From the NCBI GenBank assembly GCA_964576135.1, contig CAZNTZ010000016.1:1-16237 (forward strand): a stretch of DNA of 16,237 nucleotides, written 5' to 3'. Source of the DNA: an uncultured Muribaculaceae bacterium. GTDB lineage: Bacteria > Pseudomonadota > Alphaproteobacteria > Rs-D84. How positions within the stretch are numbered: position 1 is the stretch's first letter; each line of letters begins with the position of its first letter. This document shows, in pieces, positions 6,069 through 7,962 of the stretch. The notes below the pieces were generated by a model. The model had not been told where the DNA came from, ran no database searches, and worked only from the letters and a program-made list of their open reading frames with translations. The position numbers were made by a program, and so were the translations under genes.

Positions 6069-7601
6069 TTATTTACAATTACAAACTTCGGTTTCTAAAT
6101 TATAATCAGCAAATACTTTGCCACCGGTTGCGCAATTACCAGCGCAATCAGCAGTATAATAGAATTTTTTAGAATCATCAGTTGATATTCCGCTGCGTAA
6201 TCCATTTGTGCAATAAACAGATTTATTTATACGATCTAACCTGCCGGTATTGCCCACGCAAATCTGTTCAAATAATTTCTTATTAAATGCTTTACTGAAT
6301 TTACTATCTATAAATTTACCGCCAATACTAAAATTATATCCTTCATTAAATTTGAAAGTTTTGGCCGCCTCTTCTGCGGATATAATATTCATTTCTTCGC
6401 AATTTTTTGTCTCAGTACCTGAAATTACTGTGCATTTCATGTATTTATTTTGCAGGCGGGCCTGGCATATTTCAACAGCACCTGAAATATTACATTCTAT
6501 GTGTGCATTTGAATAATCAGGTTTATTTTTAATATATTCACATAAAAATTTTTTGCCTTCGGATAAATTTTCACCCTTGCATTCAGGGTTCTGAACAATT
6601 TCAACTATTACGGTCTTGTTGTATTCTTTCTGTGCTTCAATCGCGATATTATATTTTTCTTTTAATTTTTCCAAATATGCTTTGACTTTGTTTATTCTAA
6701 CTTTTTGTGTTTTATAATTCGGAACATCATAATATGCACTTGATAATTCTACACATGCACTTGTTCTGGCTTTTTCGCTTGGCAAATCAGAATTTACTAT
6801 GGCATTTCTGCAAAAATCATTTGTCAGCAAAGCCATTGCTTTGTTCATTTCTGCATCAAAACCCTGAATTTGAGCATTTGTTAATTTAACCTCTGGATTG
6901 GTTTTATTTTCATAAGCATTAAATAAAACATTTACTTGATTTTTAACAGATTCTATGGATTTTTCATCCCAGACATTATTTTTTACATTATTCTTAACCA
7001 CGTCCAATAGTTTCTGTAACTCTTTGCATTCTGGCAATTTTTCTTTGGCGCATGCGTCAGATTTTATTGCGCTATCTGCAATTGCGATAATAGAATTATA
7101 TTCTTTGTTTTGATCATCATTTAAAGTGTTTTTGATAATTTCAGAATTCACAATTTTATTTTTAATAACCCATTTTCCAGTTTGATTATCTTTGATACAT
7201 TCTTGTGTTTTTGCATCTGTAATTGTTTTTTCACACTCTTCTTTTGCCGCCTGATCAGCCTTTTCTGATGCAACCCTTTCTTGTTCTGCGCGTAAATTTT
7301 TCAAATTTTCTTCGTTTGATGATATTTGATCTTTTTGCTTACTTATTTTCGACATTTGGTAAATATTAACACCCGCACCCACAGCAGTAAGACCCAATGT
7401 GGTTATTCCAGCAATTTTGAAACCTTTGACACTTTTTTGACATTTTTCAAGATCGCTATATTTTTGTTGTTTTTCAGCAGTAAGTTTCGCAATCTCGCTG
7501 TCAAGCATTTGAATTTTTACAGAAGTATCAGTTGTTGCAGCCATGGCAATATTTGCCGATATAAAAAAACAAAAAAAGTATGGCAAAATTTTTTTACTCA
7601 T
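6069..7601 (-). CDS. Secreted or membrane protein of unknown family: signal peptide, coiled coil, Gly-zipper hydrophobic segment, Cys-rich C-terminal region
   Basis: 510 codons, far longer than a chance ORF in AT-rich DNA. The signal peptide MSKKILPYFFCFFISANIAMA|A has an AxA site. There are K/E/Q-rich heptad-like stretches. The hydrophobic Gly-rich segment FKIAGITTLGLTAVGAGVNIYQM is encoded at nt 7353-7421. There are 19 Cys after the signal peptide, 18 of them C-terminal to the hydrophobic segment. I recognise no family. Confidence 0.75.
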   Translation of the reverse strand: MSKKILPYFFCFFISANIAMAATTDTSVKIQMLDSEIAKLTAEKQQKYSDLEKCQKSVKGFKIAGITTLGLTAVGAGVNIYQMSKISKQKDQISSNEENLKNLRAEQERVASEKADQAAKEECEKTITDAKTQECIKDNQTGKWVIKNKIVNSEIIKNTLNDDQNKEYNSIIAIADSAIKSDACAKEKLPECKELQKLLDVVKNNVKNNVWDEKSIESVKNQVNVLFNAYENKTNPEVKLTNAQIQGFDAEMNKAMALLTNDFCRNAIVNSDLPSEKARTSACVELSSAYYDVPNYKTQKVRINKVKAYLEKLKEKYNIAIEAQKEYNKTVIVEIVQNPECKGENLSEGKKFLCEYIKNKPDYSNAHIECNISGAVEICQARLQNKYMKCTVISGTETKNCEEMNIISAEEAAKTFKFNEGYNFSIGGKFIDSKFSKAFNKKLFEQICVGNTGRLDRINKSVYCTNGLRSGISTDDSKKFYYTADCAGNCATGGKVFADYNLETEVCNCK

Positions 7602-7962
7602 TTATTTCATCATCCGGGTTTAAAACATCTGTGCCATCTGTCTGTTTTATTGTATCAATTTCTTTTTGCTGAGTTTCCAAATCTTCTTTTTGTTTTTGTA
7701 ATTTATTATTCTGAACTATTACACCAACACCTGTGCCAACAACACCAACGCCACCAACAACAGTCGCAATTGTCCAACTTCTTTTTGTTTTTTCACATCT
7801 TGCTTTTTCTGAATCTATTTGAGCTATGTCGGATTTCAAAGTATCACGCAATTCAGTTTTATACTGTAATTCTGTATTCATATCATTGGTGTCTGCTGCA
7901 TGCGCCGTATTGCATAAAAACGCAAAACCACTTGTAAAAATTATTGCTATGAATTTCTTCAT
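7594..7962 (-). CDS. Small secreted or membrane protein, paralogous to the N-terminal module of the 510-aa protein
   Basis: 122 aa. The signal peptide is MKKFIAIIFTSGFAFLCNTAHA|A. It is followed by a coiled-coil-like stretch, then ARCEKTKRSW, then TIATVVGGVGVVGTGVGVIV (nt 7714-7776), then QNNKLQKQKEDLETQQKEI. Its stop overlaps the downstream start by 8 nt (ATGAGTAA). Confidence 0.7.
   Translation of the reverse strand: MKKFIAIIFTSGFAFLCNTAHAADTNDMNTELQYKTELRDTLKSDIAQIDSEKARCEKTKRSWTIATVVGGVGVVGTGVGVIVQNNKLQKQKEDLETQQKEIDTIKQTDGTDVLNPDDEINE

Follow-up and report, generated by a model that had tools for sequence, protein, structure and literature searches.

The question raised by this locus is what two overlapping genes of no recognised family are doing between the housekeeping genes of a gut bacterium. 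They lie on the minus strand of a stretch of 16,237 nucleotides (nt) from an uncultured bacterium of the alphaproteobacterial lineage Rs-D84 (GenBank assembly GCA_964576135.1, contig CAZNTZ010000016.1, positions 1 to 16,237; the whole stretch is called the window below), and we refer to them as A, the short subunit, and B, the long one. The answer that we favour is that A and B form an exported, parallel heterodimer locked by a disulfide, with zipper helices in the outer membrane and a variable head of B outside the cell. Taken as a whole we find this quite possible, if a little short of probable; our confidence is higher than that for the heterodimer and for the export, and lower for the location and the role. 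The parts of the pair are the following, with residues given as amino acids (aa) and a slash for the putative cleavage site.

7594..7962, minus strand: gene A, short subunit, open reading frame (ORF) of 122 aa
7897..7962, minus strand: predicted signal peptide of A, aa 1-22, ...NTAHA/AD, from its n/h/c layout and AxA site (by eye)
7798..7881, minus strand: N-terminal heptad helix of A, aa 28-55, from the 3-4 hydrophobic spacing anchored on the Cys
7795..7797, minus strand: Cys56, the sole Cys of mature A, at heptad position d, from the family Cys count
7711..7776, minus strand: hydrophobic Thr/Gly-zipper segment of A, aa 63-84, WTIATVVGGVGVVGTGVGVIVQ, from hydropathy and conservation
7597..7710, minus strand: Lys/Gln/Glu-rich helical tail of A after the segment, aa 85-122, from the family tails
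7594..7601, minus strand: overlap of A and B, ATGAGTAA, 8 nt, with the stop of A inside the start of B
6069..7601, minus strand: gene B, long subunit, ORF of 510 aa
7539..7601, minus strand: predicted signal peptide of B, aa 1-21, ...NIAMA/AT, from the sequence and the family alignment
7443..7523, minus strand: N-terminal heptad helix of B, aa 27-53, with Lys44 and Lys47 in the core, from the family heptad pattern
7440..7442, minus strand: Cys54 of B, heptad position d, invariant in the B family alignments
7356..7421, minus strand: hydrophobic segment of B, aa 61-82, FKIAGITTLGLTAVGAGVNIYQ, from hydropathy and conservation
7236..7355, minus strand: predicted coiled-coil stalk of B after the segment, aa 83-122, from the AlphaFold2 (AF2) helix and the heptad pattern
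6072..7235, minus strand: Cys-rich variable ectodomain of B, aa 123-510, 18 Cys, from the Cys positions

Both ORFs and their overlap are as a preliminary description of this DNA had them, and all the peptide strings quoted there, including the C-terminal YYTADCAGNCATGG...EVCNCK of B, are present in the translations; across the junction the last codons of A and the first of B read ...AAATGAGTAA.... Each protein had also been given a signal peptide of the AxA type, and by eye the pattern is there in both: the N-termini, MKKFIAIIFTSGFAFLCNTAHA/AD in A and MSKKILPYFFCFFISANIAMA/AT in B, have a basic n-region, a hydrophobic core and an AxA site, and small residues at positions -1 and -3 (AHA/A and AMA/A in the window) are found likewise across both families. 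The Cys of A are at positions 17, within the signal peptide, and 56, and those of B at 11, again in the signal peptide, at 54 and at 18 further positions, the same eighteen that had been counted before. The ectodomain of B ends in C-x3-C-x16-C-x-C, which resembles the tails of the short B proteins described below. The best 19-residue stretch of A (aa 65-83) has a Kyte-Doolittle hydropathy (KD) of 2.14 and a Hessa free energy (dG), taken here as the simple sum of the scale over the stretch, of +1.9 kcal/mol, and that of B (aa 63-81) has a KD of 1.39 and a summed dG of +4.1 kcal/mol, which is marginal for stop-transfer. The segment had been called a GxxxG glycine zipper; hydrophobic and Gly-rich it is, but the label is loose, because the conserved face consists of Thr, Gly, Ala, Asn and Gln at heptad spacing. 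In the A family the tails after the segment are 14-65 aa long, with 21% Lys and no Cys, and some members have Pro/Ala-rich N-terminal extensions of up to ~100 aa. Lys is the C-terminal residue in 40% of the A proteins, against the 21% Lys of the tails, and the A of the window ends in ...EINE. Braun's lipoprotein is linked to peptidoglycan by its C-terminal Lys; a Lys of this kind as a defining feature of A was considered and dropped, being enriched, not universal, and absent in the A of the window.

A and B resemble each other in more than layout. BLASTP aligns them with 28% identity over 113 aa (E-value 3e-7), and hhalign, with 14 A relatives against 21 N-terminal modules (N-modules) of B, gives a probability of 96.4% and an E-value of 1.2e-9, with the Cys and the hydrophobic segment at the centre of the alignment. 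What they have in common is a helix of ~30 residues, a single Cys, a 19-residue segment of Gly, Val, Thr and Ala, and a polar helical region. The paralogy of the two N-modules, which had been proposed from the letters alone, is statistically supported by these alignments. Relatives of A number 161 among the representatives of 50%-identity clusters, all of at most 247 aa, and those of the B N-module at least 338 among 90%-identity clusters, the few named ones being called 'hypothetical protein'; with hundreds of relatives, these are real genes. A search with the full length of B gave four relatives (P0001-4), and only aa ~1-255 were common, to P0001. That this first search returned so few, and no self-match, is explained by the 90%-identity cluster in which the B of the window sits, since it is represented by a 54-aa fragment.

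As to known families, nothing that reaches or approaches the curated thresholds came from Pfam, NCBIfam, PHROGs or PADLOC, whether for A and B, for ten long relatives of B or for the proteins of a third gene (see below), the PDB sequence searches gave only sub-significant matches, to ATP synthase subunit c and paramyxovirus F, and Foldseek with the AF2 model of B against the PDB gave no match at E<0.5; the earlier impression that no known family is present is thus borne out. The weak matches are of three classes: lookalikes with a transmembrane (TM) helix and a coiled coil (FtsL, DivIC and the Rz-like spanin), lookalikes with a Gly-rich helix (ATP synthase subunit c and the KxYKxGKxW signal peptide), and, third, XaxA (17 bits, cut-off 125) and the fusion peptide with heptad repeat A of paramyxovirus F (E 0.64). 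The KxYKxGKxW matches come repeatedly, below threshold, from the segment GKKQGWMIAGISTIGLTAVGVGVN of long B proteins (e.g. L012:6278-8002, aa 54-77); the model is Gram-positive and the E-value ~0.01, below cut-off, and we took the match as compositional. In the clade of long B with GKKQGWMIAGISTIGLTAVGVGVN the sequence AQA/S comes next and resembles a second signal peptidase I site, and the GKKQGWMIAGISTIGLTAVGVGVN motif is conserved neither in the B of the window (IYQMS) nor in short B. In the literature searches, none of the 20 papers listed out of 187 describes such a module. On these comparisons we rate A and B as new, both as a protein family and as a cassette, and as a member of none of the systems that we compare them with below, with a function that is as yet a proposal.

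The two genes travel together. A is followed directly by B in all 25 distinct co-encoded pairs, counting the fetched loci and the window, so that the tandem of a short and a long gene noticed at first does recur. The 8-nt overlap of the window is one extreme of the junction, the related loci having anything between a 4-nt overlap and a 16-nt gap, except L023, where the gap is 15-129 nt depending on the start chosen for B. Scanning one genome per species gave 25 loci, every one of them in a metagenome-assembled genome (MAG) of Alphaproteobacteria from rumen, omasum, faeces or termite gut; several carry the label Candidatus (Ca.) Enterousia, and three MAGs have two or three cassette loci each. 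The A of the window is closest (63%) to the A of a termite-gut MAG. The commonest B is only ~125 aa long, with a tail of 2 or 4 Cys (C-x3-C...C-x-C), and the B of the window is the rarer long form, which retains this ending. Viral contigs hold no relatives, and a phage origin was rejected on that ground.

That A and B are made for each other is suggested by the heptad register. With both families anchored on the Cys as position 0, a hydrophobic 3-4 spacing runs from about -24 onward and places the Cys at d in A and B alike. At -7 (d) B has Lys in 98% and at -10 (a) Arg or Lys in 100% of its members, where A has Ile or Leu in 99% and 90%, and A carries Asp or Glu at -6 (e) and -11 (g). In a parallel coiled coil the e' and g' residues neighbour the d and a residues of the partner. 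The Asp at -6 of A faces the Lys at -7 of B in 25/25 co-encoded pairs, and the g residue of A at -11 covaries with the a residue of B at -10, as E-R in 11 pairs and D-K in 14. The core of the window pair contains five basic residues (K35, R39 and K53 of A, K44 and K47 of B), each opposite a hydrophobic residue of the partner, and all five have an acidic e' or g' neighbour in the partner chain. In a pair of two B chains, Lys would meet Lys and Arg would meet Arg in the core; as far as the register can tell, B therefore seems made to require A as its partner.

The same register continues into the hydrophobic segments. Conservation is 92-100% for T+11, G+14, G+17, T+21 and Q+28 of A, and 97-100% for G+11, T+14, T+18, G+21 and N+25 of B. 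At the a and d positions A has T, G, V, T, A and B has G, T, T, G, N, invariant in 25/25 pairs at four of these positions and in 23/25 at the fifth, and the predicted contact between the segments is a complementary Thr/Gly interface. In the N-terminal coils the mean KD of core and non-core positions is +2.14 and -1.61 in A, and +1.0 and -2.1 in B, while in the hydrophobic segments it is +0.7 and +2.0 in A, and -1.1 and +1.7 in B. The polarity of core and non-core is thus inverted with respect to the flanking coils, which is how a pair of helices in lipid would appear.

Which membrane this could be depends on the side on which the Cys of B are found. In 136/136 members of the A family the mature protein has a single Cys, which precedes the Gly-rich segment by at most 12 residues, and there is none after the segment; any other Cys occur further upstream, nearly all of them in the first ~40 residues, and those of the signal-peptide region vary in position and are not in a lipobox. 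In B the number of Cys after the segment is even in 26/26 complete ORFs from the loci (0, 2, 4, 6, 8, 12, 16, 18, 20, 24, 32 and 42 were seen) and in 119/123 database proteins, and the endings of the four odd ones (P0188, P0191 and P0201 among them) suggest truncated fragments or extra Cys. Counts such as 2, 6, 18 and 42 misfit metal sites with four ligands and fit intramolecular disulfides, which argues for an oxidising, extracytoplasmic compartment; judged by parity, the region of B after the segment must be disulfide-bonded and extracytoplasmic. If the C-terminal side of B is oxidising, the Gly-rich segment cannot be a stop-transfer anchor in the inner membrane, at least in B. The even counts also leave the Cys next to the segment unpaired in both A and B, and hence free for an intermolecular bond, so the pattern points to a disulfide that would join the two chains at these residues. 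The values of +1.9 (A) and +4.1 (B) kcal/mol make a passage of the segments through Sec plausible, especially for B, and precedents for such a passage are the Gly-zipper lipoproteins of the outer membrane and the internal fusion peptides of viruses. The predicted arrangement would then be a lipid-embedded pair of 19-residue helices that separates two extracytoplasmic regions. The preliminary description had seen a topology puzzle here, with a Cys-rich region that would face the cytoplasm, and had suggested a disulfide-linked heteromer; the puzzle is real, and parity together with the EGF-like patterns described below (by eye) favours a segment that is not an inner-membrane anchor, while the sole or odd juxtamembrane Cys, its d position and the complementary cores are in line with the suggested heteromer.

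These data bear directly on the most conventional alternative, a heterodimer of type I inner-membrane proteins, with the N-terminal coils in the periplasm, the tails in the cytoplasm and the Cys of B binding metal, in other words a pair similar to FtsL and FtsB or a signalling pair tied to envelope growth, beside mreB. There is something to be said for it, as the 19-residue segment has Trp, Phe or Tyr and Lys or Arg on both flanks, the KD of 2.14 in A is like that of a TM helix, the tail of A after the segment is rich in Lys, the pair adjoins mreB in the window, and there are weak matches to FtsL and DivIC (E 6e-4 to 0.08) and to the Rz-like spanin (phrog_739, A aa 62-105, E 1.3e-4). Against this stand the parity, with post-segment counts such as 2, 6, 18 and 42 that are always even in the loci and suit no four-ligand sites, and the EGF-like modules, Ser/Thr/Pro-rich linkers (by eye) and hypervariability of B, which are untypical of cytoplasmic domains. 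The cassette is, moreover, multi-copy, and its wider neighbourhood changes from locus to locus (dnaA, a gene of the choloylglycine hydrolase family, kdsA/kdsB, or mreB). The profile scores are far under the family cut-offs (19.6 against 42.45 for TIGR02209, 13.2-13.7 against 28.9 for PF04977), and only 2/14 A members match the spanin PHROG at E<=0.01. We therefore hold an inner-membrane pair to be distinctly improbable.

The two families that lend this alternative its support differ from A and B in other respects too. FtsL and FtsB (DivIC) are likewise small bitopic proteins in which a TM helix continues into a coiled coil, and they form an obligate heterodimer. They have cytoplasmic N-termini and no signal peptide, whereas A and B have a signal-peptide-like N-terminus, an extra N-terminal coil and a conserved Cys, and are multi-copy and polymorphic. 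Rz/Rz1 spanins share with A and B the adjacent or overlapping genes and the periplasmic coiled-coil helices next to a membrane segment, and spanin subunits are linked by intermolecular disulfides. A and B, on the other hand, have housekeeping neighbours and no phage context, there is no lipobox partner (B has an AxA site), both chains have a signal peptide and an internal hydrophobic segment, and B has a large variable Cys-rich domain. A family relation with spanins was rejected, as just two of the 14 A members match.

If the segments do pass through Sec, the chains might also leave the cell. One could imagine a released binary complex for membrane attack or fusion, a soluble, disulfide-linked coil whose Cys-rich head binds a receptor and whose hidden Gly/Thr helices, on contact, enter a partner's or host's membrane to form a pore or a wedge similar to a fusion peptide, giving the parasite access to the metabolites of its partner. 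The signal peptides on both chains and segments that, at +1.9 and +4.1 kcal/mol, should pass Sec would agree with this, and a narrow pore could be lined by the conserved Thr/Gly/Asn/Gln face, glycine-zipper helices being a typical feature of channel-forming proteins. There are the weak, non-significant resemblances to XaxA (E 0.0023, 17 bits against 125) and paramyxovirus F (E 0.64), and the host lineage is predicted to take metabolites from other cells (PMC12306168). The profile, PDB and Foldseek searches gave, however, no significant homology to a toxin or fusogen, and lipid-like outer faces with an interface of small residues suit a tight pair of two helices and make no obvious amphipathic pore helix. 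Either the disulfide-rich domain of B or the N-terminal coils, with the extensions of A, would have to cross the target membrane, and no secretion system is conserved beside the cassette. All in all we consider a released complex unlikely.

The known systems behind this alternative are again similar in part. XaxAB and YaxAB are encoded by two adjacent genes, have coiled-coil bodies and membrane-inserting helices, and are active only as a heteromer. The gene arrangement found here is of the same type, with an overlap, adjacency in 25/25 pairs and complementary heptad cores, and the heteromer itself is predicted. The XaxA model NF033928 reaches only 17.3 bits against its cut-off of 125, over 69 residues of the 122-aa A, and the subunits of A and B are of 100-130 aa and have no head domain, compared with roughly 350-400 aa in XaxAB; to our knowledge there is no Cys lock or variable Cys-rich domain in the XaxAB family. 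Class I viral fusion glycoproteins have a Gly/Ala-rich peptide that abuts a heptad repeat and is translocated, not stop-transferred, and the part with the fusion peptide is disulfide-linked to the part that binds the receptor. A and B differ from them in lacking the second heptad repeat of a six-helix bundle and a C-terminal TM anchor, and in being encoded on a bacterial chromosome, and the weak PDB sequence match to residues 94-156 of paramyxovirus F (E 0.64) is no evidence of homology.

What the pair carries is highly polymorphic. The N-modules of long B proteins (114 aa) are 85-100% identical, but the remaining 163-545 aa are only 15-33% identical, and even paralogues within one MAG diverge in this way (L014 and L018, 93% in the N-module against 15% in the C-terminal region). 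The C-terminal regions of B span 48 to 603 aa. To the eye the variable parts look like mosaics, in which Cys-rich modules, among them EGF-like strings (CxC..G[YW]...C) and a recurrent C-terminal module (...CWCK...WVF...C..C...CA...FR..F), are combined with linkers rich in Ser/Thr or in Pro; a Pfam scan of ten long B proteins gave no domain in these parts, no EGF match and no toxin domain. A conserved N-terminus with an unrelated C-terminus among close relatives is what is found here, and it is the hallmark of polymorphic toxins, in which case the N-module would deliver or anchor a toxic C-terminus of B, and a small neighbour, or the third gene C described below, would provide immunity. The one or two extra small secreted proteins that follow short B could be seen in that light. 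We nevertheless find a toxin system very improbable, as none of the ten long B proteins has a toxin domain, the variable parts look by eye like disulfide-rich adhesin-like modules with mucin-like linkers, and no immunity candidate follows B in the long-B loci (that of the window has rarA converging on B); C, for its part, has its own signal peptide, an even number of Cys in seven copies and no significant similarity to the heads of B. A likeness is found in the Pmp autotransporters of Chlamydia and the Cys-rich variant surface proteins (VSPs) of Giardia, which are multi-copy, have a conserved anchor and hypervariable, often Cys-rich exposed parts, and belong to cell-dependent parasites with reduced genomes. 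The difference is in the anchor, which in A and B is an N-terminal coiled-coil and zipper of two subunits, neither a beta-barrel as in Pmp nor a C-terminal TM helix as in VSPs, and there is no sequence relation to the A/B module.

We thus come back to the exported heterodimer, which could work as follows. A and B would go through Sec and lose their AxA signal peptides, as we infer from the N-termini. The mature N-terminal helices would form a heterospecific coiled coil, parallel and in register, with a code in which Lys or Arg at a core a or d position lies opposite Ile or Leu of the partner and next to a partner acidic residue at e' or g'. An interchain disulfide between the d-position Cys, which in both chains are 7 residues ahead of the aromatic residue at the start of the segment, would lock the pair, and the 19-residue helices would pack through Thr, Gly, Asn and Gln at a and d with Val, Ile and Leu turned outward to the lipid. 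As the disulfide side and the C-terminal side of B would both be extracytoplasmic, an alpha-helical anchor in the outer membrane is the location that we favour, with the N-terminal coil in the periplasm, the Pro/Ala-rich extensions of A as periplasmic spacers, and the stalk and the variable, disulfide-rich head of B on the cell surface. The conserved A/B stalk would then be a module for display and anchoring, and the hypervariable head would make contact with partner or host cells. In the short-B form the head may be the separately secreted protein C, which is a guess from gene adjacency alone.

It is not without precedent that a Gly-rich segment ends up elsewhere than in the inner membrane. 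The glycine-zipper lipoproteins SlyB/Pcp and the 17-kDa antigen of Rickettsia are exported by Sec and reach the outer membrane with marginally hydrophobic Gly-rich helices. A and B are different in having one helix per chain, placed between coiled coils, and in being heterodimeric with a probable interchain Cys bond, and they show no match to the Pfam Gly-zipper domains even at E<=10 and no lipobox Cys.

Several points weigh against the outer-membrane heterodimer. We know of no pathway that inserts a Sec-exported alpha-helical anchor into the bacterial outer membrane, nor of one that moves a large C-terminal domain across this membrane, and the loci compared have no conserved gene for a dedicated exporter beside the cassette. 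Taken alone, A has the look of a plain type I inner-membrane protein, with its KD of 2.14 and Lys-rich tail, and this hydropathy we take to be comparable to that of tail-anchor TM sequences. The AF2 monomer models are poor: that of B, from an alignment of five sequences, has a mean predicted local distance difference test score (pLDDT) of 51 and a helix at 68-125 of low to moderate confidence, and that of the B N-module, from 121 sequences, has a pLDDT of 54; both show helices without usable tertiary information. An invariant Gly at +6 and a break in the AF2 helix at aa 56-61 may break the continuity of the register from the coil into the segment, and the E/R versus D/K covariation follows the clades and may represent one or two independent events. 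A bolder variant, in which the zipper helices span the outer membrane or, on contact, that of a partner cell, as an alpha-helical surface anchor or a contact machine similar to a fusion peptide, and Rs-D84 bacteria dock onto the cells that they need and possibly open or fuse with them, a swappable Cys-rich head setting the partner specificity, seems to us a rather remote prospect.

The lineage gives the pair its interest. Rs-D84, the order that includes Ca. Enterousia, consists of widespread uncultured gut alphaproteobacteria, whose genomes of <1 Mb lack the pathways for making amino acids, nucleotides and lipids and which are predicted to need other cells, as obligate symbionts or parasites (PMC12306168). 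In genomes this small, an exported, polymorphic two-gene cassette in multiple copies is a prime candidate for the interface with the partner cell. In the scan the family is confined to such tiny-genome gut alphaproteobacteria, and the cassette may be how they touch their partners. The reading makes definite predictions: particular Cys residues should be crosslinked, the charges of the coiled-coil core should follow a heterospecific code, and the helices should meet at a Thr/Gly interface. The rule for Gram-negative bacteria is that a protein integral to the outer membrane is either a beta-barrel or a lipoprotein; should the anchor really be in the outer membrane, it would challenge this rule and pose a new question of biogenesis. 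In the most conservative reading A and B are two new related protein families, with several hundred members together, none of them informatively annotated.

Short B is followed in its loci by one or two more genes for secreted, Cys-rich proteins with lengths of about 195-230 aa, here called C, sometimes as a tandem duplicate. C has a signal peptide, an even number of Cys after it in the seven copies inspected, an N-terminal module of 4 Cys (K.aC[EQ]...W[VD]E...C[VI]P.NPC....YC) and a variable remainder. It matches no Pfam family and is absent downstream of the long-B genes, the B of the window included. The copies of gene C are located at the following positions.

L001:10723-11310
L002:8790-9479 and 9534-10214
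L005:8772-9422
L008:6314-6931
L009:6713-7369
L011:6693-7319
L020:6688-7320

That the long B of the window is a fusion of short B and C is not supported (BLASTP E>=0.6), and when a hidden Markov model of C was run on 23 heads of long B, the best E-value, that of the window, was 0.005, which is not significant beside the 0.044 reached by reversed controls. A second N-module of the B type, with no A gene before it, is present at L005:9755-9976 (also L006:6237 and L007:3470), in L005 ~1.4 kb downstream of the first A-B-C set, where the contig ends before a full read-through. At L014:9694-12111, ~3.4 kb downstream of A, there is a large protein with Chlamydia Pmp repeats and an autotransporter beta-domain (E 1.9e-35). 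Similar N-termini (MIKKL.PF.YCLTP) are found in other long-B loci (L012:9760, L022, L025, L027:8732, L028 and L032); two other copies of the large protein were tested, and these run off the end of their locus and gave no match. The large protein beside long-B loci may mark a neighbourhood of surface proteins.

In the window itself the neighbours of the pair are housekeeping genes, their names read by eye from the ORF translations: a thrS fragment, a hemolysin-III-like gene, a GNAT acetyltransferase, gltX, trmB, rarA, mreB, genes for two proteins like outer-membrane proteins, PAP2, an S41 peptidase, secF, secD and yajC. rarA converges directly on the stop of B, and mreB adjoins the A side of the pair, where two signals precede A.

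8032-8048, minus strand: terminator-like hairpin of mreB, consensus match only
8027-8000, minus strand: promoter-like site upstream of A, after the mreB hairpin, consensus match only

The hairpin and the promoter-like site before A suggest that A and B form a separate transcription unit. A search for RNA genes across the window found none. The G+C content is 0.31-0.325 across A and B (6001-8000 of the window), compared with ~0.38-0.44 in the neighbouring housekeeping genes, and the GNAT gene (2001-3000) shows a dip like that of the pair. Just upstream of mreB, on the minus strand at 9242-9946 and 9979-11169, two proteins with signal peptides, of 234 and 396 aa, end in ...NVLF and ...AIVAF, by eye like beta-barrel outer-membrane proteins. 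The thrS-like fragment is a frame of 363 codons at 2-1090 on the minus strand that runs off the start of the window, and it explains why the first kilobase appeared to be free of ORFs.

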